Source: an uncultured candidate division Zixibacteria bacterium
GTDB lineage: Bacteria > Zixibacteria > MSB-5A5 > UBA10806 > 4484-95
DNA length: 64,000 bases
Direction of reading: 5' to 3'
Assembly: GCA_963668625.2 (NCBI GenBank)
Contig: CAXXKA010000008.1
Coordinates: 960,001-1,024,000 of the forward strand
The notes beneath the pieces were generated by a model. That model was not told where the DNA came from. It saw only the letters and a list, made by a program, of their open reading frames with translations, and did no database searches. A program made the translations under genes and the position numbers. Positions 28,378-55,760 of this stretch are shown in pieces; position 1 is the stretch's first letter, and each line of letters starts with the position of its first letter.

Positions 28378-28456
28378 AACCTCTGCATTTATATTGCCTG
28401 TTCTCTAAAAAGCCATCATATAACGGAGTAGGAACCAAATTGCCGAATATGAAAAT

Positions 28457-29020
28457 ATGATCCCTATTCATGCTATTTTGCTAAATTATTGGTATTAAAC
28501 TTACTCTGTTGATTGATAGCGAATTGCAATAAATCCGACCTGCACCTTTCGACACCATAAAGCGTCAGAGATTACCACAGATATACCGCAGTTGTTACCG
28601 TATTGTTGACATGAAAAAGGCGGCCCTTTTCAGAGCCGCCTTCCGTAGATCAAGGTCAAAGTGTTAGAGCACTTTTCAAGAAGTAGTAGCTGAGTTTAAT
28701 TACTCGAATCAAGGAGTTCATTCACAATTCGGCCAGCCATCGGGAGCCTCGGCCGGTAAATCGCCGCTGCTTTGCCAGGTTGGCTCATAGTCAGGGCAGA
28801 AATGTAATTCGTTCGCGCCTCGGAAATATTGTACCAGGTAGGTAACGTCAGCGCCGATTACCGAACAGTCACCGTTAGCATCAGCCGAATTATAGAAACC
28901 ACCGACCAGACACGGCGCGGCGATAGCCCGGAAATAGTTCACCAGGTAGGTGACATCAGCGCCGATTACATTCGGCGGCCAGGCACCGGCAGCCATGTTG
29001 GCGTCACCGGGGAGGTATTC
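28457..29020 (-). repeat. Left copy of ~560-bp inverted repeat (dockerin-like tail + 3' UTR + att-like arm)
   Basis: Reverse complement aligns with 55161-55722; the non-coding part is nearly identical. Confidence 0.95.
28614..28642 (-). terminator. Intrinsic terminator
   Basis: Minus strand AAGGCGGCTCT-GAAA-AGGGCCGCCTTTTT. Confidence 0.85.
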
Positions 29021-31903
29021 GTAGGTATCACCGCCCGCGGCAAACAGGCAAAATGCCAGATCAGAATTACCTTCATAAACTGTCCAGGATGTATTTGTAT
29101 TATCCTTGAAATAGGCTGTTGAACCAGTTTGTGAATCGGTAGTTAACCAGTAAGTAGGTGATGATACCGTTCTGCAGGCTAGAAAATATGTGCCGGCAGC
29201 CAGTTCTATATCGAGGTTATCGAATTTATAAGCATACACTTCATCGTTTTCGTTGTACGTATAGTTCAAGGAAATTCTGGAACAATCACTAGATTCTCTA
29301 TTGAAAAGAACCGAACCCGGTGCGCCATTATCATTAGCCAGAATCTGGAAATCGCCTTCGCGATCGAAATATGTCTCTTCGTCATCAGCAAAAGCGCAGA
29401 TAAATTTGATGGTTTCGAGGGTAATATCCTCGGCGATGGTAAAATCATCACAGGCGAAATAAACGCCCTCATCTTCAGGCCCGCGATAAATAGCGATCCC
29501 ATCTTCGTTATCAGAATCACCATTTGTATAGTAAGCGCCCTCACAAGGAGGTGGCAGTTCATAGATATCCAGAGTGTACTCGCCACAGCCTTCGTATAGG
29601 CAATCTATAGTAAGGTAATAAGTACCGGATTCGAGGTCGTATGCAATAAGTTCCTTATGGCCGTTTTCGCAATCGTAGGTGCTTACAGACACATCTGATT
29701 CACATATCGAGGTACCGATATATGCTATGAACTCCCAGAAAGATTCGCTGTTGCAGAACGAAAAAACCCAGTCGCCGTCCGTTGGAACAGTAATTTCATA
29801 GATATGATCTTCACCCGGATAAGTAAGATAACAGTTGTTCCCTGCTCCACAGGTTGAACTTGTTCCCGTATAAGGGGCGGTAACAACGAAATCCGGTTCG
29901 GGGGGCGGCGGGCAGTCTACGCCGGTAATATTCACAATATAAGGATTGCCGCCATATTCAAAATGACCAAATATCGGGTAATAGTATGTACCGGCGTTTA
30001 AACCATTCCATGTCCTGTAGGTATATTGACCAAATTCACAACCATATTCCACTGGAGTAAAGATTTCACCCGAACATGGGCAATCCGTAAACAAGAGAGA
30101 AGATGTCTGGTAAACATAGTACTGGTTTTCGCAAAAATCGATAGTGACATTCATACAACTTTCAAGAGTAAATTTAACCCAGACTTCGGGATATCCGTGA
30201 CTATCACAATCCCGAGTTGCTTCCACCGTAGTGCCGGTAAGCTGAACCGTTTCGTCTGAAGTTAAAGTACCGGCATCATCGGCATTGGCACAATCATCAT
30301 TAGGCGGAGTATTAGGAGCCTCAGCGATCGTTAAATAGCCGTTTCCAGTACCTATATAGTTGCTTCCAATCTCAACAAGGTACGATTGGCCGGATGTTAC
30401 CGGAAAATCCAAAAAAGAACCTTGATTGCAACCTAATTGAGACGGGAGTGGTGAACAGCTATTGCCATCATAGGCGGCAATAATAGATTCAAACTCTGAA
30501 CCCATCAAATCAATTCGTGCAAAACCCGTAAATGACGAGGTATAGAGGAACCAAACATTCCCTCCCTCGGTAATGCAACTACCGCTGCCATCGTATGTCG
30601 CGCTTCTTACGGAGAAGGGTGATGAAGCGACTTCTCCAACCGCAATTGCGTCACTGCAATTATCATTATCCGGCGGTGGCGGGCAACTAACACCTTCAAT
30701 ATTAATAGTGTAGGACCTGCCTCCATCGAATCCTAAAACTGGATAATAATAAGTACCAGCCTCTAAGTTAGACCAGGAAATTGAAGGATTCATGTTATTG
30801 CAATACTGCTGATTACCATACATGACATTGCCCACATCACAGGGACAAGCTTCAAACAACTGGGTCGGTGCATCATAAACTTCGTATTCGTTATCACAAT
30901 AATCTATGGTTACATCCATGCATGATGACAGGGTGAACTTTACCCAGACTTCGGGATACCAAAAATATCCGCAATCCTGAGTTGCTTCCACCGTAGTGCC
31001 GGTAAGCTGAACCGGATACCCTTCAACAAGCGTACCGGCATCATCGGCATTGGCACAATCATCATTAGGCGGAGTATTAGGAGCCTCAGCGATCGTTAAA
31101 TAGCCGTTGCCCGTACCTACATAGTTGCTTCCAATTTCAACAAGGTACGATTGACCGGATGTTACCGGAAAATCCAAATGCAAACTTTGACTGCAACCCA
31201 ATTGAGACGGAAGTGGTGAGCAACTAGCACCATCATAAACTGCAATAATACTCTCAAACTCTGAACCCGTTAAATCGATTCGAGCAAAACCCGTAAATGA
31301 CGAAGTATAGAGGAACCATACATTCCCTCCCTCGGTAATGCAACTACCGCTGCCATCATATGTCGCACTTCTTATCGTGAAGGCAGATGAAGTGACTTCT
31401 CCAATTGCGATCGCGCCACTGCAATCATCATTATCCGGCGGGGGCGGGCAACTAACACCTGCAATATTAATAGTGTAAGGACTACCGCCATTGTAACCCA
31501 TAACCGGGAAATAATAAGTTCCGGCACCCAAATTAGACCAGGTCAGGGATGGATTCATATTAGGACATTGTAGCCAATTTCCATTATAGACATCGCCCGC
31601 ATCACAGGGACAATCATCAAACAACTTTGATTCTGCGCCATAAAAATCACCTTCGTAATCGCAGTAATCTATGGTTACATCCATGCATGATGAAAGAGTG
31701 AACTTTATCCAGACTTCGGGATCCCAAAAACTGCTACAATCAACCGTTGCTTCCACCGTAGTACCGGTAAGCTGAACCGGATATCCCTCAACAAGCGTAC
31801 CGGCATCATCGGCATTGGCACAATCATTATTAGGCGGGGGATCAGCCAAAACAGGTGTAATCATAACACAACATAATAATACCAGGATCAACATTCTAAA
31901 CAT
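28718..31903 (-). CDS. Secreted Cys-rich repeat protein with C-terminal dockerin-like domain
   Basis: Signal peptide; NDDCANA... modules with 765-bp DNA period (30216, 30981, 31746); tail GDAN...GADVTYLVNYF...DANGDC..GADVTYLVQYF...GWPNCE. Confidence 0.88.
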   Translation of the reverse strand: MFRMLILVLLCCVMITPVLADPPPNNDCANADDAGTLVEGYPVQLTGTTVEATVDCSSFWDPEVWIKFTLSSCMDVTIDYCDYEGDFYGAESKLFDDCPCDAGDVYNGNWLQCPNMNPSLTWSNLGAGTYYFPVMGYNGGSPYTINIAGVSCPPPPDNDDCSGAIAIGEVTSSAFTIRSATYDGSGSCITEGGNVWFLYTSSFTGFARIDLTGSEFESIIAVYDGASCSPLPSQLGCSQSLHLDFPVTSGQSYLVEIGSNYVGTGNGYLTIAEAPNTPPNDDCANADDAGTLVEGYPVQLTGTTVEATQDCGYFWYPEVWVKFTLSSCMDVTIDYCDNEYEVYDAPTQLFEACPCDVGNVMYGNQQYCNNMNPSISWSNLEAGTYYYPVLGFDGGRSYTINIEGVSCPPPPDNDNCSDAIAVGEVASSPFSVRSATYDGSGSCITEGGNVWFLYTSSFTGFARIDLMGSEFESIIAAYDGNSCSPLPSQLGCNQGSFLDFPVTSGQSYLVEIGSNYIGTGNGYLTIAEAPNTPPNDDCANADDAGTLTSDETVQLTGTTVEATRDCDSHGYPEVWVKFTLESCMNVTIDFCENQYYVYQTSSLLFTDCPCSGEIFTPVEYGCEFGQYTYRTWNGLNAGTYYYPIFGHFEYGGNPYIVNITGVDCPPPPEPDFVVTAPYTGTSSTCGAGNNCYLTYPGEDHIYEITVPTDGDWVFSFCNSESFWEFIAYIGTSICESDVSVSTYDCENGHKELIAYDLESGTYYLTIDCLYEGCGEYTLDIYELPPPCEGAYYTNGDSDNEDGIAIYRGPEDEGVYFACDDFTIAEDITLETIKFICAFADDEETYFDREGDFQILANDNGAPGSVLFNRESSDCSRISLNYTYNENDEVYAYKFDNLDIELAAGTYFLACRTVSSPTYWLTTDSQTGSTAYFKDNTNTSWTVYEGNSDLAFCLFAAGGDTYEYLPGDANMAAGAWPPNVIGADVTYLVNYFRAIAAPCLVGGFYNSADANGDCSVIGADVTYLVQYFRGANELHFCPDYEPTWQSSGDLPAEAPDGWPNCE

Positions 31904-32160: not shown

Positions 32161-34452
32161 CTACTTTAAAAATACCATCCTGTTGCTGAATGAGCCTTCG
32201 GAAGTATTCAACCGGCAGAAATATATACCCGATGATACGATAGTTCCCGATTCATTAGTGCCATCCCAGATTAAACTATGTGAACCGGCATATAACGCTC
32301 CGCTATGCAATGACTTTATCAGCCGACCACCCACATCAAATATCGATACGGAAACATCATCAGCTTTTTCCAGGGAAAATCGAATCGAGGTGGTAGCGTT
32401 AAATGGATTGGGGTAATTTTGAATTAACTCATACGATAAGGGCAACTCTGTTGGCTGATCATCGATTCCAGATATTACATCGGATTCCAGACAAAATGCC
32501 AGACAAGTAGGCACCGAAGCCCATTGGCTACGATCACGATCATATTGAGCTCCAGCGCCGCTAAGACCGGAAGTCTCCCAGGCGAACATACATCCGTCGG
32601 CCTCATGACTACTTTGAATCATCACCCAGCCATCGTCGATATATAATGTCTCCGGTAAATCAACCATAAACTTAATCTGCCGAGCATTTCCCATTCCCGG
32701 GAAAGCGTAATTTGTCTCCTCCCAGTTGGCTAAAACATCATATACTGCAATAGTATCCAAAGGTATATACGGTGAACTATTGCTATAATTACAGAAAACA
32801 ATTTGGAAAGGAGCGGGGTTTTCAGGTTGGCAAATTTCTTCACCAGTAGCACTAAAATAAATTCCCCACCAATTCACCCGGGTAATTCCGTCATCAGTTC
32901 CCGCAAATTTGTCGGCTACAGCATACTGAGAATTTAAATCTGAATATAAGCAATCAGAGGAAAAATTAAAAAAGTAAGCAGGCGGTTGACTAAAAATGCT
33001 GCTATCGTTACAAACCTGCCTCGTAGCTGCCTTAACATTAATTACGTACTCACCTTCATATGAGTCCATTACGAAAAATGGATAGTAGTAAGTACCGGGT
33101 GGTAAACCTTGCCACCAGAGGAGCGTAGCAGAATTAGTAGGGCATTCCCACATCACAGATTCAGCTATAGAAAATACCCAAGCACTACTTGAATGAGGGC
33201 AATTGTCCGCAAGGACATACGACAAATAATATCCACTGTTAGCCATGGCCACAGTTCCACAGAAATCCACACTGACATCAAGAGTATCCTCAAGTGTAAA
33301 TTTAATCCAGACTTCAGGTACAGGTTCGACCATCTCACACCCTATAGTTGCTCCGGTATTATCACCGGTAAGCTCGATAGCCAGTCCGGCAGTAAGAATA
33401 CCACCGTCAAGTGCGCCGGCGCAATCATCGTTAACTGGCCGTTCCGGCGCAGGTGCGATTGAAAGATATGTGGATGATGTATCGCGTTCATGATTATAAC
33501 TTACTTCTAACAGGTATTGCTCTCCGGCGATTGCATCGAAATAAAGATGGAAAATTTTCCCTAACGTCATAGTTCGATTTAATATCGTAGTGCTTGTCGG
33601 ATAAATAGTTAAATAGTAATTGGCGTTATTATTACTATTATCTGAAGCAACTATGTAATATGTTTCACCCCCGGTTACAGGAAAACTATAGATAGTTGGT
33701 CCCTCCCCATAAGTATCATCATAGTAGTTATTCCAGTAGCTGCAAGCCAATTCGTTAGCATCTTCATTCATTATCACGATTCCCATATCGTTATCGGGGC
33801 TCGTAAGTATGATATCGATTTCCCCATCGGTTTCAGCGGTATAAGAATATACGGCATCCGGACCAGACTGATCCCAAGAGTACATACATGAGCATTCCTC
33901 ACTGTAATCACGGTGCAAACCTTCCATGTCGCTATAATATGAAACCGGCAATGGATCGGTTATCGGCGTAGCTGACTCGATGTCTTCACCTCCATCGAGT
34001 AAAACAGAGGCAGGTATTTCAACGTATTCGGGACAGGTGGAACCATCATAAACGGCAATATTGGGGGCAATAACTAACTGATTCTCGGGATCATCAATAT
34101 CAATTCGCATTCTACCGGTAGTGCTGGCAGTATATAAAAACCATATATTTCTAAATACTGACAAATTGCCGCCATCAACTGTAGCCTCGTTTGCATTAAT
34201 TAATAGATCCTGAACGTCGCCAATCTCTATCGCATTGGAACAATCGTCATTAGTGGGAACGTCAAGTATAATGCCATCATCCTTCAAATGACGTATCCCG
34301 GGGGTTGGTTCGGCTATCTTTGCGTTATCCGCATTTTTAAGCCCAACCGCATCGGCTAATATCGGCTTAGTTATACTATATTCCTCAGTAGCAAAGACTG
34401 CAACTGCCAGGACCGTAACCAACGCCAATGAAATTAATAGTGCTTTTCTCAT
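32161..34452 (-). CDS. Secreted Cys-rich module protein with T9SS/FlgD-Ig-type C-terminal domain
   Basis: Signal peptide; NDDCSNA and NDDCAGA modules; tail QNYPNPFN..T.I.F...WDGTNESG..VSSGIYF...MVFLK. Confidence 0.88.
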   Translation of the reverse strand: MRKALLISLALVTVLAVAVFATEEYSITKPILADAVGLKNADNAKIAEPTPGIRHLKDDGIILDVPTNDDCSNAIEIGDVQDLLINANEATVDGGNLSVFRNIWFLYTASTTGRMRIDIDDPENQLVIAPNIAVYDGSTCPEYVEIPASVLLDGGEDIESATPITDPLPVSYYSDMEGLHRDYSEECSCMYSWDQSGPDAVYSYTAETDGEIDIILTSPDNDMGIVIMNEDANELACSYWNNYYDDTYGEGPTIYSFPVTGGETYYIVASDNSNNNANYYLTIYPTSTTILNRTMTLGKIFHLYFDAIAGEQYLLEVSYNHERDTSSTYLSIAPAPERPVNDDCAGALDGGILTAGLAIELTGDNTGATIGCEMVEPVPEVWIKFTLEDTLDVSVDFCGTVAMANSGYYLSYVLADNCPHSSSAWVFSIAESVMWECPTNSATLLWWQGLPPGTYYYPFFVMDSYEGEYVINVKAATRQVCNDSSIFSQPPAYFFNFSSDCLYSDLNSQYAVADKFAGTDDGITRVNWWGIYFSATGEEICQPENPAPFQIVFCNYSNSSPYIPLDTIAVYDVLANWEETNYAFPGMGNARQIKFMVDLPETLYIDDGWVMIQSSHEADGCMFAWETSGLSGAGAQYDRDRSQWASVPTCLAFCLESDVISGIDDQPTELPLSYELIQNYPNPFNATTSIRFSLEKADDVSVSIFDVGGRLIKSLHSGALYAGSHSLIWDGTNESGTIVSSGIYFCRLNTSEGSFSNRMVFLK

Positions 34453-34536: not shown

Positions 34537-35442
34537 CTAACAAAAATCATCCATAAAGTACTTTTTGTTTTTAACAAAAAAGTGGTCTTTTGCTTGTTTC
34601 CAGATCGAGTCGAATAAAAGTACGAAGCCTTTTGCCATAGCTTTATGTTCAGTTGCAAGCATTGTCAGCGATGTTTTCTCCTTGATGGAGTCCTCCAGGG
34701 CAACAAAGCATGTCTTTCTATCAAATAGAAAAAGTTTAATAGGAAGTTCATCAATAATTTTTATCTCTTCTTCATCACCGGATTTCAATGTAGCTGATTT
34801 TTCAAAATATTCTAAAATTTTGTCTTCTGGCGGCATTTCAAGAATTATTTTTCTTACAATCCCCCTTTTAGCGCCTTCATTCTGTACATCAATCTGTTCC
34901 CTGAATCGTGATTCAGTGTCACATGTATATGGAGGTTTCATGAAAGCCAGCACCTCATTTTGCGTTCTGGAATATAAATCAATATATTTGTTATGAATTA
35001 ATTCCGGGCTGTTCAATATTTCGATTCGATTAATTGGATCACGATTATTACGGTTATGTTGGTACAATCCATTAAGGTCACCGATTATTGAATTCATGTT
35101 GTTTTGAAGACTTTCCTTAAGAAGCAACTTTTGCTTTCTTTTCTTTTCCAAATCTTCAAGCTCAAGCTCGGTAGTTTTAATGGCAGGTAAGAAAGTTTTT
35201 TCCTTAAGTGTCCTCGGATCCGCAGCCTTGTATCGCTTAATTCTCCCCGGAATACCTATAGCTAAGCCTTTCTCGCTTAACTGTTCCAGAGCGTCATAAG
35301 CGCTAGTTCGCGGAATGCCCCCGATTTTTGCAATCTCTCCAACCGCAAGAGATTCTCTTTGAAATAATGCCTGATAGCATTTTGCTTCATAATCGGGAAA
35401 ACCCAATTGCTTTAAAATTTCTACATAATTTACGTTTTTCAT
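34537..35442 (-). CDS. TrmB-family transcriptional regulator (paralogue 1)
   Basis: LG..DYEAKCY.AL, EIAK.GGIPRTSAYDALEQL.EKGL wHTH; coiled coil; C-terminal LPIKLFLFD...FDSIW.QA. Confidence 0.9.
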   Translation of the reverse strand: MKNVNYVEILKQLGFPDYEAKCYQALFQRESLAVGEIAKIGGIPRTSAYDALEQLSEKGLAIGIPGRIKRYKAADPRTLKEKTFLPAIKTTELELEDLEKKRKQKLLLKESLQNNMNSIIGDLNGLYQHNRNNRDPINRIEILNSPELIHNKYIDLYSRTQNEVLAFMKPPYTCDTESRFREQIDVQNEGAKRGIVRKIILEMPPEDKILEYFEKSATLKSGDEEEIKIIDELPIKLFLFDRKTCFVALEDSIKEKTSLTMLATEHKAMAKGFVLLFDSIWKQAKDHFFVKNKKYFMDDFC

Positions 35443-35456
35443 TTAATCACCTGCGT

Positions 35457-35519: not shown

Positions 35520-35620
35520 GCAATTACTTCTAACTGATTATTTATTATTATGTTATGGCGAAACTCAGGAATAGCTTTTAGAAATTTACATCAGGGTAAA
35601 GATGGCGGTTGCTAGAAGTA

Positions 35621-35787
35621 AACTACCACCGGCCACAGGGCCGGTGGCTTTTATCCTGCCGGCTTAAGAGGGCTATCACCGGTTCCTAACCTCTCAAGAT
35701 TCCGTGGCTGGCAGACGTCCTCGTCAGCCGCATTCACCTAACTCAAATCTACTGCTAAGGGGCACACGCGGACGTGTGCTGCCCACA
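35621..35787. repeat. REP-like / IS200-605-end-like palindromic elements
   Basis: CCACCGGCC-ACAG-GGCCGGTGG hairpin, then an inverted pair of imperfect palindromes: GTGGCTGGCAGACGTCCTCGTCAGCC and GGCACACGCGGACGTGTGCTGCCCAC. Confidence 0.55.
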
Positions 35788-35823
35788 AAAAGTCTATAGT
35801 TGTTTTCTAACTTAGGAGTATCC

Positions 35824-36192: not shown

Positions 36193-37080
36193 ATGGAAAA
36201 CGGCTACAGTGTCAACGTTTTAACTGGGTTTGGCTTAACTAACTACGAAGCCAAAATATACCTGGCTTTGCTTGAGAAGAATTATCTTTCAGCAACGGAA
36301 ATAGCTCGCCTGACAAAAGTACCTCGTACTTGTGTTTACGATGATTTAAAGACTCTTGAGCAAAAGGGACTTTGCAAATCTATTACCGGTAAAACAAAAT
36401 TGTATTCGGCTGTGGCGCCCTCACTAGCCAAGGATGTCCTTTATCAGACGGAGCAGCAAAAAGTCGAATCAAAAATCAATGAGTATAATGATAGAATAAA
36501 AAGTGAGCAGGATGATTTAGTAGATAGACATAAAGAGTTCGAGAAATTAGTTACTAAACTATCTCCAGTATTCGAACAAAGTAAAAAGGGTAGTAATCCT
36601 CTTAACTATCTTGAAATAATCGTGTCACCTATAGCTATTTATAAAAAATATATAGATCTTATCTCTAATTCAAAGAAAGAGATATTAACTTTTGATAAAC
36701 CCCCGTATTCCTCGATTACGAAGTATGAAATAAGGGAATCTCTCAAAGTACTAGAGGATGCTATCGATAGGGGCGTAGAAGCAAAAAGTATCTGGGAACT
36801 ACCCGAGGAGCAGGACGAAAGAACCGCTAAATTACAATACTTCTTTAATAGATTCAATCCCCAAAAAGATAAAATCAAATTCATTGATGAACTTCCAGCT
36901 AAAGTTACAGTAGTCGATTCTAAAATAACATTGTTCTCTCTTGCCGAACCATCTGTCGGTGTACAATCGCTGATTACTCTTGCTGCTGAGAGTGAAACTT
37001 TAGCCAGAGGTTTTAAAAAATTGTTCGAATTGTACTGGAGTAATGCTGAAGATCCGGAGAAATATAAGGAAATCAGGTAA
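36193..37080 (+). CDS. TrmB-family transcriptional regulator (paralogue 2)
   Basis: FGLTNYEAKIYLALL, EIARLTKVPRTCVYDDL..LEQKGL; LPAKVTVVD...FELYWSNA. Confidence 0.9.
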   Translation: MENGYSVNVLTGFGLTNYEAKIYLALLEKNYLSATEIARLTKVPRTCVYDDLKTLEQKGLCKSITGKTKLYSAVAPSLAKDVLYQTEQQKVESKINEYNDRIKSEQDDLVDRHKEFEKLVTKLSPVFEQSKKGSNPLNYLEIIVSPIAIYKKYIDLISNSKKEILTFDKPPYSSITKYEIRESLKVLEDAIDRGVEAKSIWELPEEQDERTAKLQYFFNRFNPQKDKIKFIDELPAKVTVVDSKITLFSLAEPSVGVQSLITLAAESETLARGFKKLFELYWSNAEDPEKYKEIR

Positions 37081-37219
37081 TACGGATTCGAAGTACTTCA
37101 CGCAAGATAGGTAAAAAATTGCATAGTCAAAACTAAAGAGCTGATTTTGGAGGTGAGGTAATTACTGGATAAAAAATATGAGTATTGTTAAAGGAAAAAA
37201 ACTTCTGGGAGCATTTAAG

Positions 37220-45452: not shown

Positions 45453-45587
45453 ATATTAAACGATCCGGGCCGTCCGTGCTATTCCGATCACAGCCCCGGA
45501 TAACCGAATTTATTATGATTGAACCTTCTGGTTCGAATAATAGATACTTAGCGTTTGTTTCCTGAGTGATCTAGCTCTTTAATCTTG

Positions 45588-46970: not shown

Positions 46971-49900
46971 ATGAATAAGTTTTACTCATTATTAATAACA
47001 GCAGTTCTAGTAACTTGTTTCAGCTTCACATTGGCAGGTAACAAACCGCCAGACCCATCAAGTCAGGATGACTACTCGCTCTGGCAAAAAACACCAAACG
47101 GAGAAATTGAGCTCGTCAATCCATCTGAAACTGAATCGGAAAAGTCCGTAATTTCTTCGCATGTATCGAATTTACTTGAACGAGTCCAGCTTTATCCGTT
47201 GCAGAACTCATGGGGAAAGTTGATTCTTAAACATGGCACCGAGGAACAGATCAGGCGGATGTACGATCTTTTAAGCAAGGGTTTTGCTACTACGGAGGAT
47301 TTTGAAAAGTTTAATGCTTTAACTGAAGAGATCCTGGCGCAAATCCCCCGTGATCCACTATCCACAATTACTGAGATTGGTGATAACTGCGCCGATCCAA
47401 TAGCTATTACCTCCCTGCCTTTTTCAGAAACACGTTCCATGACAGACTATAATAACTACTATTTCGCCGGTGGGAATGAAGTCATTTATAAACTTACCCT
47501 TACCGAGACGACAAGGATAAAAATCTCATTATGTAATAGCGAAGACCCTAATTTCGATGCTTTTCTAGCTTTAGTAAGATGGAGTGATTGCTCGCAATTT
47601 TGGTTTAATGGTTCATCCGTCCAGGGCCATAGTCTGGATGATTGCGGCAACATGCTTCCGGAAATACCGTATGTCGAGGCTTGCGCAGGCGATTGGGCTA
47701 TTATAGTTGACACATGGGATCCCATTTACAACACTGGCTCTTACACTATCGACATTACCATAGAGGATCCGGTTGTTCTTGAACCACCACCGGGAGCTTA
47801 TATGGAACAGGAGGCCTGCGGTGATAGCACAAATAATACCGACCCGATCAACGAGGCGGAACTTATAAGTTGTGGCTATACCGTTTGTGGCGCTATCTGG
47901 GCGGATTACTTGGAAAATGAGAACGATTATACTGGTGACGCTGATTTTTATACATTTACATTGGAGGACACTTACGAGCATTGGAAAGTTGATTTAACTG
48001 GAATGTCTGAATTTAGGACGAGGGTAGCCCTGTATGAGATTATTCCGGATTTACCATTTCCAATGTGGTGGAATATTGAATCATTTTATCCGGGTCAGCC
48101 ATTTGCCAATGAAATTACTGTTCGCCCGGGCACTTATTTATTGGCAATTTATCCAGCGAGACTAGCAGCCGACATCGTTTGCGATGATAACAGCCTTTAC
48201 TATTTTCAACTCGACTGTGGCCCCATAGAACCGGGAGGACCAGTGAACGACTGGTGTGATGATGTAACACCGCGTCTTCTCGAAAGCGGTGATTCTCTGA
48301 TTTTCACTGGCAACACCACTAACGCTACAATCGATTGTATTCAGAACGCACTGGTTCCAGATTTTGATATCATACCCACTCAAACCTTCTCTGGTGAAGT
48401 CTGGACAGCATTTACAACTACAGACACACTTGATGTGATTGTTGCTTTTTGCGATTCTGATCCCAACTCGGTGGGTCAATGCGCTTCATTGCTTTATAAT
48501 GATTGCCCTTGCGGCTACGATGGTGTTTCGGCCGATAGCTATAATTATTTATATTGTTCTGACGGCAGTTTAGCGTTGTATTTTAATGCTCTTCCCCCGG
48601 GAACGTACTATTATGAAATATTCAGAGATCTTGATATACTCGATGTCACCGATTACAGGCTGGCTATCAGCGGCACTCTTTGTCCCCAACCGCAGCCGAA
48701 TGATAACTGCGCGAATGCCATAGCTGTCTATGAGGATATACAAACTGAATTCAATACCACTTATGCCAGTTTTGATGGCCCCGGCTATTGCCTGGAATCG
48801 AAAAATGTCTGGTTTATATACGAGCCTGATGAAACCCATGCGGTGAGCGTGAGCTTGGAAGGGTCACGTTTTAACACCAAGATGGCTATTTACGAGGGGG
48901 GCGAGTGTCCTCCAAGTCAGGAATCGATGATCGAATGTAATAATAATTACAACTCACTTTCCAATTTCTCGTATATCGAGTTCCTGGCAGTTGAAGGAAC
49001 GCGATATTTGATCGAAGTCGGCGGGACAAACTTAGAAGCAAGAGGCGCCGGCTTTATGCTTATCTCCCCTATTGCCTCTCATGACGTACGCGTGGATAAG
49101 ATAATCAGCCCCCTGCCGGGAAATATTCTCGATCCAGGAACGGACTATGAATTAAACGCCATCGTTTCAAATAGAGGATTCTACGAAGAGACATTCAATG
49201 TAATTGCAGTTGACAATTATGGTTTCGAGTTAATCGAGGAATACATTACGTTAGCCCCAGGCGAACAGACGAATTTATTCGAGGGCAATTTCTATACTTC
49301 TCCTTCCGAAACTTGCGAGGACCATGAATTTAAAGTAATAACATCGCTGAATAGTGATGAATTTACATCAAACGATACTTTCACTGTTACTTACAACATC
49401 CCTCGTGAAGGTGATATAAGGCATTATGGTTATTACACCGACGGTGAAGATGCATGGATAAGTGGCCCAGTGTTCTCCGAAATGATATCAGCGACTAAAT
49501 TTGTTGCCGATGGGCGGGATGCGATTGTCTATATCGGTGGTAAATTCGCTAATACCACTTCGATCGATAGCACGATTGACCCGGTTAAGCTTTATCTTTT
49601 CCAGGATGATAACGATGACGGTTTCCCTGATGATGAACCGAGATTCGAGGCTGTCGTTCAGCTTCAGGGGATGGAATATAACTGGGTCTATGCTGTCTTA
49701 CCGTGCGATGTAGTTGTTGACAGCGGCCAGGTTTTCTGGGTCGGCTTCGGTATAGTTAGAGATGGCCGTGAAGGCTTTGAGGGTATCTTCGTCGATGCTC
49801 ATCCTGAGTGCGATAGCTCGTGGCTAAGGAGCCAATATGGCTATTGGGAGAGAAACGTTGAAGCTAACGGGGATAAGTTAATAGGCGCCTGGGCCTTGCC

Positions 49901-50207
49901 TGATTCTCTTACCGGTATCGATGATTGCGAGACGGGCTTACCGTTATTCTATGGGCTGGCTCAAAATTACCCCAATCCTTTTAACGCCCGGACTGTAATA
50001 CGTTACAACCTGGCTGAGCCTGGCTTAGCTACTATTACAATATTTGACATTTTAGGACGAAAGGTCGAAACACTGGTTGACGATTACCAGACAGCAGGCC
50101 TTCATCAAGTTACCTGGAACGCAGGAGACTTTGCTTCCGGATTGTATTACTATAGAATTCAGGTTGGTGACTATACTGAAACGAAAAATATGCTGCTTAT
50201 GAAGTGA
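46971..50207 (+). CDS. Secreted Cys-rich module protein with T9SS/FlgD-type C-terminal domain
   Basis: Signal peptide; GDNCAD, NDWCDD and NDNCANA modules; QNYPNPFN...SGLYYYR...MLLMK. Confidence 0.88.
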   Translation: MNKFYSLLITAVLVTCFSFTLAGNKPPDPSSQDDYSLWQKTPNGEIELVNPSETESEKSVISSHVSNLLERVQLYPLQNSWGKLILKHGTEEQIRRMYDLLSKGFATTEDFEKFNALTEEILAQIPRDPLSTITEIGDNCADPIAITSLPFSETRSMTDYNNYYFAGGNEVIYKLTLTETTRIKISLCNSEDPNFDAFLALVRWSDCSQFWFNGSSVQGHSLDDCGNMLPEIPYVEACAGDWAIIVDTWDPIYNTGSYTIDITIEDPVVLEPPPGAYMEQEACGDSTNNTDPINEAELISCGYTVCGAIWADYLENENDYTGDADFYTFTLEDTYEHWKVDLTGMSEFRTRVALYEIIPDLPFPMWWNIESFYPGQPFANEITVRPGTYLLAIYPARLAADIVCDDNSLYYFQLDCGPIEPGGPVNDWCDDVTPRLLESGDSLIFTGNTTNATIDCIQNALVPDFDIIPTQTFSGEVWTAFTTTDTLDVIVAFCDSDPNSVGQCASLLYNDCPCGYDGVSADSYNYLYCSDGSLALYFNALPPGTYYYEIFRDLDILDVTDYRLAISGTLCPQPQPNDNCANAIAVYEDIQTEFNTTYASFDGPGYCLESKNVWFIYEPDETHAVSVSLEGSRFNTKMAIYEGGECPPSQESMIECNNNYNSLSNFSYIEFLAVEGTRYLIEVGGTNLEARGAGFMLISPIASHDVRVDKIISPLPGNILDPGTDYELNAIVSNRGFYEETFNVIAVDNYGFELIEEYITLAPGEQTNLFEGNFYTSPSETCEDHEFKVITSLNSDEFTSNDTFTVTYNIPREGDIRHYGYYTDGEDAWISGPVFSEMISATKFVADGRDAIVYIGGKFANTTSIDSTIDPVKLYLFQDDNDDGFPDDEPRFEAVVQLQGMEYNWVYAVLPCDVVVDSGQVFWVGFGIVRDGREGFEGIFVDAHPECDSSWLRSQYGYWERNVEANGDKLIGAWALPDSLTGIDDCETGLPLFYGLAQNYPNPFNARTVIRYNLAEPGLATITIFDILGRKVETLVDDYQTAGLHQVTWNAGDFASGLYYYRIQVGDYTETKNMLLMK

Positions 50208-50286
50208 GACCCGAACGCAGGCAGTAGGATAACGGCTCATCAGCCCTGTGGCTGGTGAGCCTGTCGATTCCGATTTAAGGAGAATT

Positions 50287-51525
50287 ATGAAATACTTAAA
50301 AATTGTTTTGTTGGTAATGCTCTTAACGGCGTTTAGCTATACGATTGTAACTGCCCAGACAGTCGAGTTTGTCGGCAGTTATGATACACCGTCAATCGCC
50401 CGTGGTATTACTGTTACTGATAATTACGCTTATATTGCCTCAGGCTCATCGGGTTTGCTGATAGTAGATGTCTCCGATCCTGAAAATCCAGTATTTACAG
50501 GAAACTATCAAACATCAGGTACTGCCAATGATGTCTGTATCTCGGGAGATTACGCATATATAGCCGCCGGTTTTTCAGGCCTTCAGATAGTTAATATTTC
50601 CAATCCGGGCAGTCCATCACTTGCCGGCAGTTACAGTACTCCCGATCGTGCTTTAACTGTTCAGGTTATAGGTAACTACGCATATATAGCCGACAGGGCT
50701 TCATTCCAGATAATTGACATTTCCGATCCAGAAAATCCCGCCTTAGCCGGGAGTTGGAACAATTCAGCAAATGATCTTACAAGCGTTAATGTCAGCGGAG
50801 ATTATGCTTATTTGACCAGGTTAACATATGGACTGATTCTGGTGAGTATAACCGATCCTGAAAACCCAGAATATGTAGGCGAGTACTACAATGGAAGTAA
50901 CACCACCTATGACGTTCATGTCTCCGGCGATTACGCCTTTGTGGTTGATGGGTCATCACTGAAAATGATTAATACTTTTATCCCAAACGCTCCTACACTT
51001 TACGCGACGTGTTATGATTTGTCGATTGCGAAGAGTGTTTATGTTTCGGCCGGTTACGCTTATGTAGCCGACTTTGATTACGGGCTTCACGTGATATATA
51101 ATCCTGATCCATTTCATCTTACATATATCACGGGTTATGAGACGACCGAACATGTCTATGACGTTTTTGTTTTAAATGAATACATTTATATAACTGAGGG
51201 ATCTTCTCTTTTGATTTTAAGATATTCTCAGGTTGATATTAATGAAGAATTCAACCTGCCACAGGAGTTTTCACTATCGGGTAATTATCCCAACCCTTTT
51301 AACTGTTCTACGGTCATATCATATGAGCTGAAACAACCCACAGCGATCAGGCTTGATATCTATGATCTTTTAGGTCGCCGTATTGAGACGCTGGTTAATG
51401 AATACCAGCAAGCGGGCCAACACCGAATCACCTGGGATGCAACAGGTGTCAACTCCGGCGTTTATTTCTATAAAATGCAGACAAATGAATATACTGAAAT
51501 GAATAAAATGATATTGTTGAAGTAA
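50287..51525 (+). CDS. LVIVD-repeat beta-propeller protein with T9SS-type C-terminal domain
   Basis: Repeats V.G.YAY.A....GL.I.D.S.P.NP...G.Y; NYPNPFN tail; ATG at 50287 after AAGGAG. Confidence 0.9.
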   Translation: MKYLKIVLLVMLLTAFSYTIVTAQTVEFVGSYDTPSIARGITVTDNYAYIASGSSGLLIVDVSDPENPVFTGNYQTSGTANDVCISGDYAYIAAGFSGLQIVNISNPGSPSLAGSYSTPDRALTVQVIGNYAYIADRASFQIIDISDPENPALAGSWNNSANDLTSVNVSGDYAYLTRLTYGLILVSITDPENPEYVGEYYNGSNTTYDVHVSGDYAFVVDGSSLKMINTFIPNAPTLYATCYDLSIAKSVYVSAGYAYVADFDYGLHVIYNPDPFHLTYITGYETTEHVYDVFVLNEYIYITEGSSLLILRYSQVDINEEFNLPQEFSLSGNYPNPFNCSTVISYELKQPTAIRLDIYDLLGRRIETLVNEYQQAGQHRITWDATGVNSGVYFYKMQTNEYTEMNKMILLK

Positions 51526-52812: not shown

Positions 52813-52857
52813 ATCAGTGGTAATAAATAAAGTCGCCGAGCGTAAACGCCCGGCGAT

Positions 52858-53023: not shown

Positions 53024-53138
53024 ACAAACGATAACGCTTCAAATCAGAAAAATCTAAAAATAGTCACGGCCCCGCAATTTTAAAAGCGGGGGGTGTGTAA
53101 ATCTATCATTTAAGTTATTAGCGAATGGTGTTGGAAAT

Positions 53139-55463
53139 ATGAGAAATACAAAAAAGCAATCCATGATTGGGTTAGTCCTGGTATTGATGTTCCTGGCTAT
53201 TCCCAGTCTGACTTTTGCCGATGGCGCCTGCTGTACCTCTAGCGGATGCGTGGAGGTTGCGGACGTTACGACCTGCTTAATGTCTAATGGAGTCTGGATT
53301 GGTGAGGGCACGAGTTGCTCGGACGATCCTCCACCCTGCAACGGTGCCTGCTGCACCGGTGAAGGATGCGTAGATAATCTTGATGTTACGACTTGTATGA
53401 TGACTTACTCCGGCCTGTGGATGGGCCCGAATACATCATGCAGCGATCCCGATATTTGCAGTGGCGCGTGCTGTATTGGTACGTCCTGCCAATTTATCAC
53501 CGAAACAGAGTGTGCTAACCTTTCCGGAAGCTTCTCCGGTTTTGGCATAACCTGTGATCCGAACCCATGTGTTCAGCCAACCGGCGCCTGTTGTACCCTG
53601 GAGGGGTGCGTAGCCGATGTTGATGCAATGACCTGCGCGGTGGTTTACTCCGGCGTGTGGATGGGATCCGAGACATCATGCAGTGACCCTGACCTATGCT
53701 CAGGCGCTTGCTGTATAGCCGATACCTGCCAGGTTATGGATCCAGCCCTATGTAGTCAACTCAATGGAGATTTTGCGGGCTATGGTTCGGGCTGCTTCCC
53801 TGATCCCTGCGGCCCTACTGGTGCCTGTTGTCTGCAGACGCCAGTTGGCGCATTCTGCACGGATATGACCGAAGAACAATGTGTCTTGATGGGCGGTTCC
53901 GCTACTTATCACGGTGATGGTACCTTCTGCGATGGTATTGACGGTGACGGTAATGGCGTGCCGGATCTCTGCGAAGATCTCGAAGGTGCTTGCTGTATTG
54001 GTGAAGATTCGTGCTTATTCGTTACCGATTCAGAATGCCAATTGGCCGGTGGCGAATTCAAAGGAATTGGTACTGACTGTTCGGATATGAACTCGAACGG
54101 TGTCGCCGACGTTTGCGAAAACAGTACGGAAGGCGGCGCTTGCTGTACTTTCATGCAGGGTTGCGTGGATGTTGCCGATCAGGCGACTTGCGAAGGCGAT
54201 CCTTATTTGGGTCAGTGGATGGGCGCCGGCACTAGTTGTTCGGACGATCCTCCTCCTTGTAATGGCGCTTGCTGTACGGAAACCGGTTGTGTCGATAATG
54301 TCACTGCTATGACCTGTCTGTCAGCTCATGCCGGACAGTTCGTTGGTGCCGGCACTAGTTGTTCGGACGATCCTTCTCCATGTAACGGCGCCTGTTGTAC
54401 GGATGAGGGATGCATTGATGGTATTGATGCTATGACTTGTATGACTACATATTCAGGTCAATTTATGGGCGCGGGTACGTCATGTAGCGACCCGGGTATT
54501 TGCAGCGGTGCCTGCTGTACCGGTGAGACCTGTCAATTTGTTACCCAAACAGAATGTAGCAATTTGTCCGGAACCTTCTATGGTTATAACACGACCTGTG
54601 ATCCGAATCCATGTATCCAGCCAAGCGGCGCTTGCTGCACTCCTGAGGGATGTATAGCGGATGTAAGCGGAATAACCTGTGCGACGGTTTACTCCGGCAT
54701 GTGGATGGGACCAGGATCATCATGCAGCGACCCTAACCCTTGTGTGGGCGCTTGTTGTATAGATGATAGCTGTCAGGTATTGGATCCAGGTGAATGTAAT
54801 CTCCTCGGTGGGGAATTCCTTAATTACGGCTCGGGCTGCGATTTTAATCCCTGTGGCCCTACTGGAGCTTGTTGCACAGAGTTTCCCGTGATCACTATCT
54901 GCTCAGATATGACAGAAGAAGGATGCGCGGCGTTAGGTAGTGTCGCAACGTTCCATGGCGTTGGCACTTATTGTGATAATATTGACGGTAACTCAAACGG
55001 TATCCCGGATATCTGCGAGGATCTCGAAGGCGCTTGCTGTTACAGCGATGGTTCTTGCATGATGCAAACCGATGAGGATTGCCAACTGGACGGTGGCGAG
55101 TTCAAGGGGATTGGCACTGACTGTAGTACCCCGGATATTTGTCCAGCGCCTCCCGGTTTAGATTATCTCCCCGGTGATGCCAACATGGCTGCCGGCTCGT
55201 GGCCGCCGAACGTAATCGGCGCTGATGTCACCTACCTGGTGAACTATTTCCGGGCTATTGCCGCGCCATGTTTACTGGATGGTTTCTATACCTCCGGCGA
55301 TGCTAACGGTGACTGCTCGGTAATCGGCGCTGATGTCACTTACCTGGTACAATATTTCCGAGGCGCGAACGAATTACATTTCTGCCCGGACTATCAACCA
55401 TCCTGGTCTGGCAGCGGCGATTTACCGACCGAGGCTCCCGATGGTTGGCCGAATTGCGAATGA
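53139..55463 (+). CDS. Secreted GACC-repeat cysteine-rich protein with dockerin-like tail
   Basis: Signal peptide; 15 GACC motifs; DxDxNGxPDxCE Ca-binding-like motifs; internal duplication with ~1044-bp period. Confidence 0.88.
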   Translation: MRNTKKQSMIGLVLVLMFLAIPSLTFADGACCTSSGCVEVADVTTCLMSNGVWIGEGTSCSDDPPPCNGACCTGEGCVDNLDVTTCMMTYSGLWMGPNTSCSDPDICSGACCIGTSCQFITETECANLSGSFSGFGITCDPNPCVQPTGACCTLEGCVADVDAMTCAVVYSGVWMGSETSCSDPDLCSGACCIADTCQVMDPALCSQLNGDFAGYGSGCFPDPCGPTGACCLQTPVGAFCTDMTEEQCVLMGGSATYHGDGTFCDGIDGDGNGVPDLCEDLEGACCIGEDSCLFVTDSECQLAGGEFKGIGTDCSDMNSNGVADVCENSTEGGACCTFMQGCVDVADQATCEGDPYLGQWMGAGTSCSDDPPPCNGACCTETGCVDNVTAMTCLSAHAGQFVGAGTSCSDDPSPCNGACCTDEGCIDGIDAMTCMTTYSGQFMGAGTSCSDPGICSGACCTGETCQFVTQTECSNLSGTFYGYNTTCDPNPCIQPSGACCTPEGCIADVSGITCATVYSGMWMGPGSSCSDPNPCVGACCIDDSCQVLDPGECNLLGGEFLNYGSGCDFNPCGPTGACCTEFPVITICSDMTEEGCAALGSVATFHGVGTYCDNIDGNSNGIPDICEDLEGACCYSDGSCMMQTDEDCQLDGGEFKGIGTDCSTPDICPAPPGLDYLPGDANMAAGSWPPNVIGADVTYLVNYFRAIAAPCLLDGFYTSGDANGDCSVIGADVTYLVQYFRGANELHFCPDYQPSWSGSGDLPTEAPDGWPNCE

Positions 55464-55722
55464 ACTCTCTGATTTGAGTAATTAAACTCAGCTACTACTT
55501 CTTGAAAAGTGCTCTAACACTTTGACCTTGATCTACGATAGGCGGCCTTAACGGGCCGCCTTTTTCATGTCAACAATACGGTAACAACTGCGGTATATCT
55601 GTGGTAATCTCTGATGCTTTATGGTGTCGAAAGGTGTAGATCGGATTTATTGCAATTCGCTATCAATCAACAGAGTAAGTTTAATACCAATAATTTAGCA
55701 AAATAGCATGAATAGGAATCAT
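55161..55722 (+). repeat. Right copy of ~560-bp inverted repeat
   Basis: Matches the reverse complement of 28457-29020. Confidence 0.95.
55540..55565 (+). terminator. Intrinsic terminator
   Basis: AGGCGGCC-TTAACG-GGCCGCCTTTTT. Confidence 0.85.
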
Positions 55723-55760
55723 AATCCTCGTGTCCGGGGTTTGAGTCCCTGCTCCGCTAC
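55714..55760 (+). other. 3' half of tRNA-Met(CAT); attR-like remnant
   Basis: AGGA-ATCATAA-TCCT anticodon arm, CGGGG-TTTGAGT-CCCTG T arm (TTC changed to TTT), CTCCGCTAC acceptor strand; no 5' half. Confidence 0.8.

Follow-up and report, generated by a model that had tools for sequence, protein, structure and literature searches.

Two inverted copies of a repeat, each running into part of a tRNA-Met gene, face outward from a 27-kb region of the window, the whole 64,000-nt stretch of DNA analysed here. The question raised by this arrangement is whether the copies bound one unit or are the ends of separate elements. The first-pass annotation had read the 27 kb as an invertible or mobilisable unit or, alternatively, as the product of a system in which variable passengers are joined to a constant tail and att module. 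Our analysis departs from the former reading: the interior comprises three or more cassettes together with a dead IS and a MITE-like repeat, the left core has decayed, the module exists in many copies and the GC content does not stand out. The latter agrees with the pattern of the whole cassette family. We think it likely, though well short of certain, that each repeat copy is the constant right-hand end of its own outward-facing cassette, that the copies carry attR-type scars of tRNA-Met, and that the 27 kb is a patchwork.

Anatomy of the inverted repeat

A repeat search of the window returned two inverted pairs, I1 of 386 nt with 90% identity (28635-29020 and 55161-55546) and I3 of 174 nt with 97% identity (28456-28629 and 55550-55723). 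Alignment showed that I1 and I3 form a single 565-nt repeat, being separated by a 2-nt indel in the terminator loop. The whole repeat thus covers 28456-29020 and, inverted, 55161-55723, in good agreement with the 28457-29020 and 55161-55722 annotated before, and its copies are 26.9 kb apart and differ at about 8% of positions. Three further features of the first-pass annotation were also borne out: the non-coding arm (97% identity) is better conserved than the coding tail (90%), the gene bodies 5' of the two tails could not be aligned with each other, and the short repeats of the arm, described as of CGGTA/TGGTA type, were read directly in the sequence as CGGTA/TGGT. High identity ends at ...GGAATCAT/GGGATCAT, which the alignment places inside the anticodon loop of tRNA-Met. 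Table 1 lists the features between and around the two copies.

Table 1. Features of the repeat copies, the region between them and the right flank (window positions)
Feature	Position	Strand	Basis or remark
Decayed tRNA-Met 3' part (core AGGGATCAT and fossil half)	28420..28465	-	tRNA-Met alignment; X1 junction
Left P-type arm, CGGTA/TGGT repeats	28466..28613	-	97% to right arm; 93.7% to C10:429 copy
Left 3'UTR, three hairpins including terminator	28614..28717	-	Alignments; alifold structure
Cassette A tail protein, 1061 aa, internal 765-nt tandem repeats	28718..31903	-	
Constant dockerin-like tail of cassette A protein, last ~100 aa	28718-29020	-	
Cassette A T9SS substrate (Por_Secre_tail, FlgD_ig)	32161..34452	-	Pfam
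Cassette A TrmB-family regulator (TrmB and DUF7436)	34537..35442	-	Pfam; 16 paralogues in genome
MITE-like repeat, divergent TrmB intergenic region	35613..35794	.	blastn; ~50 partial or whole genome copies
Cassette B	36193..38542	+	TrmB regulator 36193-37080, then 454-aa protein
2184-aa subtilase, T9SS sorting domain	38832..45386	+	Pfam
Decayed rve-type (IS3/IS481-like) transposase, frameshifted	45584..46518	-	
Two T9SS substrates (1078 aa; 425 aa with LVIVD repeats)	46971..51525	+	Pfam
Cassette C TrmB-family regulator, 407 aa	51589..52812	+	Pfam
Cassette C tail protein, 774 aa, Cys-rich modules	53139..55463	+	
Constant dockerin-like tail of cassette C protein, last ~100 aa	55161-55463	+	
Right 3'UTR and terminator	55464..55565	+	Median 92% across 14 copies
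Right P-type arm, outer end GTCAACAATACGGTAACAAC, then TGGT repeats about one helical turn apart	55566..55713	+	
tRNA-Met 3' part, positions 29-75 (anticodon stem, loop, T arm, acceptor), core intact	55714..55762	+	96% to C8:1029560-1029634
Repeated ~100-nt flank B'	55763..55862	+	5 genome copies
HTH_17 (excisionase-type) protein	55911..56540	+	
tRNA-Asp, 3' end towards region	56679..56754	-	

The two tRNA-Met ends

As had been supposed, the right copy continues into a near-intact 3' half of tRNA-Met (Table 1). In the left half, past a 1-nt gap, 21 of 36 positions are identical to tRNA-Met, and 12 of the 15 changes are transitions (the other 3 are transversions), which fits the earlier description of a half decayed mainly by transitions. 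Because the left core has decayed, the arms of its anticodon stem, AGGGA and TTTTC, no longer pair. In a local-alignment shuffle test, the score of the left half was reached by 31 of 300 shuffles, since the shared core dominates the score. The test is thus not discriminating, and what speaks for the left half is its fixed-register identity directly beside the core. On the left side, identity stays at 97% as far as the anticodon loop and falls there to 58% without passing through intermediate values, and the drop coincides with the start of the repeat's identity to the tRNA gene. This boundary would be the expected crossover point of such integrases. The left att is a fossil, with a young arm set against an old, decayed tRNA half.

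The sequence to the right of the right tRNA half is itself repeated (B' in Table 1) and probably belongs to an element of a second type, as its arm or leader, rather than to unique chromosome, so that the right site may be an attP-like junction of two elements and not a plain attR. Since the right core is intact and the left core is a fossil, we read the 27 kb as a patchwork of island relics beside tRNA-Asp, not as one mobile or invertible unit.

An intact tRNA-Met, an integrase and an island beyond the window

The first-pass annotation had thought an intact tRNA-Met and an adjoining integrase worth seeking, and both were found outside the window, about 14 kb to the right of the repeat. The tRNA-Met gene lies at C8:1029560-1029634 (window-equivalent 69560-69634), just beyond the window, and 155 nt downstream of it is the gene for a tyrosine integrase of 351 aa with Phage_integrase (PF00589, 85 bits), Int_N and SAM-like domains, which looks intact. 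A profile search with PF00589 placed none of its 12 genome matches in C8:960001-1024000; the earlier statement that the window holds no integrase is therefore true for tyrosine integrases. At 44.5 kb past the intact tRNA-Met, the same arm recurs in direct orientation with a 47-nt tRNA half, the half having 91% identity to the tRNA. The 44.5 kb between carry genes for an IS3 transposase, a D5_N/DUF5906 primase, a Type ISP R-M system, TIR and NACHT proteins. A tRNA-integrating island is recognised by an integrase next to its target tRNA and, at the opposite end, a second copy of the tRNA 3' part in direct orientation; both are present here. The intact tRNA-Met with its integrase, and an island ending in the same arm and half, uphold the view that the repeat ends are attR-type sites of a tRNA-Met-targeting integrase.

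Unlike the far-end copy of the 44.5-kb island, the tRNA halves in the window have no upstream partner tRNA. Contrary to simple integration, neither copy is downstream of the intact tRNA-Met: the right one precedes it by 13.8 kb, with alaS and other core genes between. We propose that a lambda-type tyrosine integrase would insert an element carrying its own tRNA 3' part into tRNA-Met at the anticodon loop, and that an arm joined to the 3' 47-49 nt of tRNA-Met would be the attR-type scar of such an event. Integrase-less cassettes may have been inserted or stacked in trans, in a CIME-like accretion, and may later have been scattered by rearrangement. The cassette family would then ride on ordinary tRNA-integrating islands.

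Repeats and conservation of the arm

Every arm begins, at its outer end, with the ACGGTAACA/CGGTAAC motif. Two more copies stand in the P' arm beside the integrase, and in both G000 and the relative G006 this CGGTAAC doublet is found in the interval from tRNA-Met to the integrase. The 9-mer of the motif occurs 42 times genome-wide against about 33 expected, which is no enrichment. From their sequence, the arm repeats are predicted to be arm-type integrase sites. Across the order, arm identity is 70-76%, and in 17 aligned copies from G000 and seven relatives a block of about 95 nt is conserved at 85% or above in most columns. The conservation has the pattern of direct repeats at helical spacing and is found in non-coding DNA across families. 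A scan of metagenomes with the arm pattern gave 8 loci, 5 of them with a tRNA half at fixed spacing, and a scan of viral contigs with the block pattern gave 0 matches. The block offers a simple probe for island borders in related metagenomes.

A genome-wide family of cassettes

The two copies in the window are not the only ones: the source genome has 15 copies of the tail with 3'UTR and 9 of the arm. The cassettes share the order of TrmB regulator, T9SS protein or proteins, dockerin-like-tail protein and 3'UTR with terminator, and 13 of the 16 TrmB paralogues head a cassette with a high-identity tail at its end. Five of the 9 arms abut a high-identity tail, and 10 of the 15 constant tails have no arm, including both five-member tandem arrays except for one unit. 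Since most cassettes are without an arm, tandem duplication may be the main route by which they spread. The tail-UTR-arm module also ends a tRNA-Leu(taa) island (tRNA direct repeat of 57 nt, 96.5%) and a tRNA-Glu(ctc) island (repeat of 25 nt, 96%, with a truncated integrase), and at C10:429 a complete arm-core-B' site lies between successive cassettes.

The TrmB paralogues are 25-47% identical as proteins; divergence is only 19% at the third codon positions of the tails and 8% in the UTR. The tails are mosaic, with the right window copy (winR) sharing patches with C8_1367 and C4_169, and two types of terminator loop are mixed among loci. Recombination among cassettes appears to hold tail and UTR constant. 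The UTR region gives a good fold (alifold, z -3.3), and the arms at C4 and C8:574 are only partial.

The name of the tail could be kept only in part. The constant tail had no match to Pfam Dockerin_1 (PF00404) at E ≤ 5 and none to PDB sequences at E ≤ 1. Two DxNxD-type repeats are visible in it, and in the ESM Atlas it neighbours clusters with Dockerin_1 (score 0.95, 20 of 30 matches), which serves as a lead only. We thus call it dockerin-like and no more.

Inside the window, the 454-aa protein of cassette B ends in a diverged dockerin-like tail with 72% amino acid identity to the constant tail. The decayed rve-type transposase has copies at C6:829968-831466, C8:255099-255442 and C8:202827-202904, and the cassette TrmB intergenic region also holds a short stretch similar to C8:1062253-1062492. 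No attL or B' remnants were found 5' of the cassette TrmB genes. GC content ranges from 0.41 to 0.47 in the 27 kb and from 0.37 to 0.50 in the flanks, which gives no island signal. Elsewhere in the window, a Mutator transposase is encoded at 1836-3107.

Related genomes and the flanks

Integrases lie beside tRNA-Met in three other genera (80% identical in G006, 73% in G014 and 67% in G019), and paralogues with 47-49% identity lie beside tRNA-Leu(taa) in G012 and G018. At G018:C108, three arm and half units in a row bracket a cassette of TrmB and a 1019-aa protein and an AcrB/OEP cassette; the former is integrase-less, with an arm and half on both sides. CIMEs are flanked by attL and attR and have no integrase or transfer genes. 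G018:C108 fits this description, C10:429 fits it on one side, and the cassettes of the window have only the attR-type end. At G014:C69 there are four tRNA-Met matches in one orientation, that at 78799-78855 being beside an integrase fragment. In G001 and G013, an arm and half lie a few kb from tRNA-Met with no integrase between, as does an arm only in G012.

The right flank is syntenic in G001 up to tRNA-Asp, beyond which that genome has recombinases, adjoining the tRNA-Asp, and a giant protein. Matches to the left flank in that genome are all weak and on another contig, and no empty site was definable in this genome of the same genus. Contig C12 of G006 has a tRNA-Asp match with a broken integrase-like match 140 nt away. 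The HTH_17 protein of the window has 48% identity to the product of a gene in G009, where a primase-bearing element carries it at its tRNA-proximal end. An island bounded by tRNA-Asp was considered and rejected: no direct repeat with at most 3 mismatches of 22 nt was found in the window, and none in a genome-wide tRNA self-blast.

Alternative explanations

If the 27 kb were a discrete unit, inverted or mobilised by a tRNA-Met integrase through its two outward attR-like ends, the inverted placement of arms so nearly identical, the matching integrase 14 kb off and contents that are nearly all secreted proteins and their regulators would be accounted for. However, an invertible segment has two functional inverted sites, and here the left core is decayed, with its stem arms unpaired and 15 of 36 tRNA positions changed. 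The ends belong to separate cassettes of a multi-copy module, the interior is a patchwork, and two attR sites are no normal substrate pair for lambda-type integrases. We regard such a unit as very improbable. Under plain paralogue dynamics, a tail gene would have come by chance to lie beside an attR, and gene conversion or segmental duplication would have copied tail, UTR, arm and tRNA piece together, the att being inert and integrases having no role in placing the copies of the window. The mosaic tails, the mixed loop types, the partial arms at C4 and C8:574, the many cassettes without arms and the failure to find attL remnants all suit this account. It does not suit the abrupt fall in left identity at the anticodon loop, exactly where tRNA identity begins, or the recurrence in other genera of cassettes bracketed by arm and half, as site-specific stacking predicts. 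It is unlikely in our view, but it has an appreciable chance of being right.

The tRNA-Met integrase might also at present be capturing and reshuffling integrase-less cassettes through an arm-core-arm site of about 300 bp, in an active integron-like platform by which the arrays of this bacterial order are built and edited today. The complete arm-core-B' sites between cassettes at C10:429 and between the G018 units, the same-orientation matches of G014:C69, the arm conserved across families and the seemingly intact integrase gene point this way. But many arrays have no arms, the assembled contigs showed no circles, empty sites or polymorphisms, and the viral contigs gave no matches; we hold ongoing activity of this kind to be improbable. 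It is scarcely credible that the repeat is an assembly artefact or that arm and half form a small RNA gene and not a DNA site. Such repeats can mislead assemblers, and the conserved arm and the well-folding UTR region might suggest an RNA. However, the two copies are not identical, and X1, a wetland metagenome contig of independent origin (461 nt), joins the arm to the same decayed tRNA half; since X1 shares the left junction, this junction is no assembly artefact of the source genome. Public runs were compared as assembled contigs: those of three runs, compared with 54300-56700, fragment within the repeats and none bridges the full repeat, and only the left junction was recovered, in another sample. 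In Rfam, the whole window at gathering thresholds gave only tRNA-Asp, and 55380-55920 at E ≤ 1 gave two sub-threshold matches (E 0.3-0.96), which were rejected. The helical spacing of the arm's direct repeats likewise speaks against an RNA.

Significance and comparison with known systems

Read as the ends of separate cassettes, what appeared to be a 27-kb island with inverted ends becomes a clear case of a secretome assembled from mobile parts. Thirteen regulator-headed cassettes for secreted or surface proteins, several of which keep attachment scars of tRNA-integrating elements, all have one constant tail and 3'UTR, which show concerted evolution, whereas the remaining parts diverge. Should the tRNA-Met integrase still move these cassettes in trans, they would provide a tractable example, from a bacterial group about which little is known, of cassettes being captured other than by integrons; if they are no longer moved, they are a well-documented fossil record of island accretion. 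More speculatively, and with doubt, we suggest that in this order of uncultured T9SS bacteria tRNA-Met could be an integron-like capture platform, at which a resident lambda-type integrase inserts, stacks and exchanges integrase-less cassettes by a site of about 300 bp (arm, tRNA half, arm), and that one lineage (TrmB, T9SS and dockerin-like tail) fused its tail and 3'UTR to the site. With such a fusion, recombination within or close to the att module could exchange the variable secreted bodies attached to a constant anchoring tail.

In tRNA islands with lambda-type integrases, attL is the restored tRNA and attR an arm with the displaced tRNA 3' part. The present system shares with them the integrase beside an intact tRNA-Met, the direct repeat of the tRNA 3' 47 nt from the anticodon stem, the repeat-rich arms on both sides, and the defence and primase genes of the 44.5-kb island. 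The copies of the window differ in being orphan, inverted and not downstream of the tRNA, one of them a fossil. Integrons (attI/attC) may be likened to it as arrays of units each with a terminal recombination site and an integrase at one end of the platform. Unlike integron cassettes, those described here hold several genes, a regulator of their own among them; their att sites are of the double-strand lambda type and lie on a tRNA half, where integrons have folded single-strand attC; and the integrase is not assigned to the IntI type.

The closest known systems are the tandem accretion of integrase-less islands (CIMEs) and tycheposons. Set against the available part of the account of CIMEs and tandem accretion in the Streptococcus ICESt1 family (PMC5704250), our case differs in that no conjugation genes were seen and that a three-part secretome cassette, its 3' module constant, recurs as the cargo. 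The tycheposons of Prochlorococcus, as far as the accessible portion of their description goes, have a tyrosine recombinase and primase/helicase modules at tRNA genes, with neighbours separated by a partial tRNA only, and degenerate remnants and scattered partial tRNAs build islands (10.1101/2020.12.28.424599). By that description, the recombinase and primase at a tRNA, the partial-tRNA separators and the remnants seen here resemble those of tycheposons, whereas the host group and the cargo are different; the arm block of about 95 nt and its linkage to a gene tail and UTR are not among the tycheposon features given in that portion (10.1101/2020.12.28.424599).

Anatomy and copy number of the inverted repeat

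The window spans C8:960001-1024000 of the source genome. A repeat search of it returned two adjoining inverted pairs, 28635-29020/55161-55546 (386 nt, 90% identity) and 28456-28629/55550-55723 (174 nt, 97% identity), and pairwise alignment showed that both form a single 565-nt repeat whose sole break is a 2-nt indel in the terminator loop. The bodies of the left and right genes that end in the repeat could not be aligned 5' of their common tail. Identity between the two copies breaks off at GGAATCAT/GGGATCAT. At the right-hand end, 55714-55762 corresponds to positions 29-75 of the tRNA-Met gene of the source genome (96% identity), and on the left, 21 of 36 positions past a 1-nt gap are identical to tRNA-Met, the 15 differences being 12 transitions and 3 transversions. 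The repeat search, alignments and tRNA match bore out all that the first-pass annotation had described here, namely inverted copies of a dockerin-like tail, a 3'UTR and an arm that run into a near-intact (right) or decayed (left) tRNA-Met half. Internal repeats were present in both tail proteins: three 765-nt tandem units in the 1061-aa protein (30129-31845), and 120/240-nt Cys-rich modules within a duplicated super-repeat in the 774-aa protein (53222-54760).

Features of the repeat, the region around it and the related loci (plain numbers, window positions; C4, C8 and C10, contigs of the source genome)
Feature	Position	Strand	Content
Repeat part 1, left gene	28718-31903	-	final ~100 codons in repeat
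Repeat part 1, right gene	53139-55463	+	final ~100 codons in repeat
Repeat part 2, 3'UTR			~100 nt; GC-rich hairpin and T run
Repeat part 3, arm			~150 nt; many CGGTA/TGGT repeats
Cassette A	35442-34537 (TrmB)	-	TrmB, T9SS protein, tail protein, left att
Divergent intergenic region	between cassettes A and B		750 nt; holds MITE-like repeat
Cassette B	right of the intergenic region		TrmB, 454-aa protein with diverged tail
T9SS subtilase	right of cassette B		2184 aa
rve-type transposase remnant	45584-46518, right of subtilase	-	frameshifted
Two further T9SS proteins	between rve-type transposase and cassette C
Cassette C			TrmB, tail protein, right att
tRNA-Asp	56679-56754	-	faces the 27-kb region
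Tandem array	C8:223-255 kb		five cassettes
Array	C10:399-436 kb		four cassettes
Island at tRNA-Leu(taa)	between tRNA and 57-nt copy of its 3' part (96.5%)		one cassette
Island at tRNA-Glu(ctc)	between tRNA and 25-nt copy (96%)		one cassette; truncated integrase
Window			two cassettes
Full-length arm and half	both window copies; C10:429470-429665; C8:1073906-1074100; C8:189185-189365
Partial arms	C4:168698; C8:574965; C8:211741; C8:675261

Blastn against the whole source genome, together with tblastn maps, identified 15 copies of the constant tail (80-100% protein identity) and 9 copies of the arm, so the repeat is not a two-copy feature. The tail copy at C10:412598 has an internal deletion and shows 54% identity by tblastn yet 87-88% in DNA. 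The 3'UTR and terminator are present in 13 of the 15 tail copies at about 88-92% DNA identity. Five arms are full-length with a tRNA-Met half after them, and four are partial; five of the nine begin immediately 3' of the constant-tail terminator, at the identical base each time (between ...TTTTTCAT and GTCAACAATACGG).

A cassette family with a constant end

Pfam scans of the window and five other loci revealed a recurring gene order, in which a TrmB-family regulator (about 300 aa, frequently with DUF7436) is followed by one to three T9SS substrates (Por_Secre_tail), a constant-tail protein and the UTR. By tblastn, the 4.3-Mb source genome has 16 TrmB paralogues, 73 dockerin-like tail domains and 213 T9SS C-terminal sorting domains, and 13 of the 16 TrmB genes head cassettes terminating in a high-identity tail. 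The TrmB query had 17 matches in the source genome versus at most 6 in any of 40 relatives, with a match present in 16 of the 41 genomes, the source genome included.

The TrmB paralogues share 25-47% protein identity, and the 240 nt 5' of the tail have a median DNA identity of 60%, near noise. The tails have a median DNA identity of 92%, with differences of 2.6% at codon positions 1 and 2 and 19% at position 3. Because tail and UTR are much more alike than the other cassette parts, they are of far more recent origin than the cassettes themselves, implying that cassettes have exchanged them. The UTR (window 55464-55565 and 12 other loci) likewise has a median identity of 92%, and this 8% divergence, versus 19% at third codon positions of the tail, makes it more conserved than silent sites; its fold has three hairpins with a few compensatory changes. 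Conservation of the UTR may reflect a function, and this part of the constant-tail genes could act as an RNA or as a DNA element.

The intact tRNA-Met gene and the adjacent integrase

ARAGORN located the matching tRNA-Met gene at C8:1029560-1029634. It has the orientation of the right repeat and lies 13.8 kb to the right of it, 5.6 kb outside the window. A genome scan for PF00589 gave 12 matches, 11 of them above the cut-off. None of the 12 falls within the window, as the first-pass annotation had stated for integrases, and one, at C8:1029829-1030281 on the minus strand, directly adjoins the intact tRNA-Met gene; this integrase is 351 aa long and carries Phage_integrase, Int_N and SAM-like domains. 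The earlier att-site reading is correct, and the presence of the intact tRNA-Met gene and an adjacent integrase just outside the window strengthens it.

An arm (82% identical to that of the window) and 47 nt of the tRNA occur again, in direct orientation, 44.5 kb downstream of tRNA-Met. The genes of this 44.5-kb island encode an IS3 transposase, D5_N/DUF5906 primase, SNF2/PLD, Type ISP restriction-modification, NucS-like nuclease, TIR and nSTAND3/NACHT proteins. Two CGGTAAC motifs, 11 nt apart, lie between tRNA-Met and the integrase, and a CGGTAAC doublet occupies the equivalent place in the relative G006. Identity to the integrase of the source genome is 80%, 73% and 67% for the tRNA-Met-adjacent integrases of G006, G014 and G019, respectively. 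The motif ACGGTAACA is at the start of every arm in the source genome. Since the 9-mer shows no genome-wide enrichment (42 occurrences versus about 33 expected), the motif argument rests on position, not count.

Repeated RNA-gene sequence was also seen at other loci of the source genome. At tRNA-Arg(acg) (C6:784353-829115), a perfect 46-nt copy of the 3' part, from position 31, lies 44.7 kb downstream, and that end also has two integrase genes; by its sequence, this locus appears to be another island with an anticodon-loop crossover. Two inverted tmRNA genes (C6:155-508 and C6:18059-18413, 99.7% identical) at a contig start enclose five PF00589 matches, four above the cut-off, and are probably explained by an ssrA island or by an effect of the assembly end. 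Three copies of the 5'-terminal 26 nt of tRNA-Gly(tcc) lie immediately upstream of that gene at 368-nt intervals (C6:326797-327985).

Origin of the left end

As far as the anticodon loop, the left and right arms share 97% identity; past it, the left end agrees with the tRNA at 58% of positions, the changes being mostly transitions. The junction of arm and decayed half is also present in a second, independent sample (contigs of public runs, which break up in the repeats). This end could have arisen in one of two ways. An integrase-mediated exchange at the loop may have put a young arm onto an old half-site, as favoured by the absence of a zone of intermediate divergence, or gene conversion between the repeats may have reached the limit of usable homology, as favoured by the absence of an attL remnant. 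Under exchange and conversion alike, the left core has lost the ability to form the stem flanking the loop, and most likely it no longer works as a site of recombination.

The 27 kb and its flanks

A recent inverted duplication of one whole unit was ruled out, because the TrmB regulators of cassettes A and B are only about 32-34% identical. The GC content of the 27 kb does not set it apart from its surroundings. The right flank, 55763-55862, is not unique, being found also at C10:429666-429768, C8:1074106-1074170, C8:681239-681340 and C8:677326-677420, and it aligns weakly to sequence 5' of an HTH_17 gene of the relative G009. That gene, 48% identical to the HTH_17 gene of the window (55911-56540), belongs to an element with a DUF5906 primase and is located at its tRNA-proximal end. 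Recombinase genes adjoin tRNA-Asp in G001, of the same genus, and in G006 a broken integrase-like match (C12:6585-7331) lies 140 nt from a tRNA-Asp match (C12:7474-7562). Given the patchwork content, the repeated flank and the HTH_17 and tRNA-Asp context, we interpret the zone from 28.4 to 56.7 kb as relics of islands stacked together, with the right repeat end adjoining remains of a second element type.

Several other features were noted. A repeat of about 180 nt with GC-rich hairpins (35613-35794), resembling a MITE or REP-type element, occurs about 50 times, complete or in part, at 75-95% identity across all large contigs of the source genome. Of the copies of the rve-type remnant, one begins exactly at the end of a PF00589 match covering only profile positions 3-138 of 172 (C6:829968-831466), one lies at the upstream end of the five-cassette array (C8:255099-255442) and one adjoins tRNA-Val (C8:202827-202904). 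Left of the repeat, an isolated 130-aa N-terminal fragment of acetyl-CoA synthetase (16579-16971) and an intact Mutator-family transposase (1836-3107) are signs of rearrangement. Beside tRNA-Asp in G001 (C223:29343-38507), the two recombinase genes are accompanied by a protein of 3054 aa that carries DUF6443, an Ntox50 polymorphic-toxin domain and a match to dockerin.

Arm and tRNA half in relatives and metagenomes

A 399-nt query matched 39 of the 41 genomes, the source genome included, most matches being the tRNA part alone; arm and half (about query 103-313) were found at 70-76% identity in G001, G002, G006, G012, G015 and G018. An alignment of 17 arm copies from the source genome and seven relatives (10 loci searched for copies) showed an arm block of about 95 nt, most columns of which, as marked, are at least 85% conserved. 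The block has TGGT repeats spaced about one helical turn, and a variable stretch separates it from the tRNA part. When metagenome contigs were scanned for the block pattern, it was found at 8 loci with varied flanking genes and an integrase fragment at one; the half follows at the same spacing in 5 of the 8, and none of these 5 halves belongs to a whole tRNA. The same scan of viral contigs gave no matches.

Integrase paralogues (47-49%) adjoin tRNA-Leu(taa) in G012 and G018. Contig C69 of G014 has four tRNA-Met matches in one orientation (25304, 32687, 71296 and 78799), the last adjoining an integrase fragment. Contig C108 of G018 carries three successive arm-and-half units, of which units 1 and 2 enclose a TrmB regulator and a 1019-aa IPTL-CTERM protein, and units 2 and 3 enclose AcrB/OEP/ECH genes; no integrase is present at this array.

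Taken together, the results do not support the single invertible 27-kb unit proposed in the first-pass annotation. The 27 kb is a patchwork. Its repeat belongs to a family of cassettes present in many copies, of which it forms the constant end, and which tRNA-integrating islands carry or have left behind. The recurring secretome cassette, the concerted tail/UTR/arm module and the arm block conserved order-wide are new; the mechanism is of a known kind. Successive integrations at one tRNA (bioRxiv 10.1101/2020.12.28.424599) and integrase-less CIMEs (PMC5704250) have been described, and the arrays in the relatives, such as the one in G018, show the pattern given for them.
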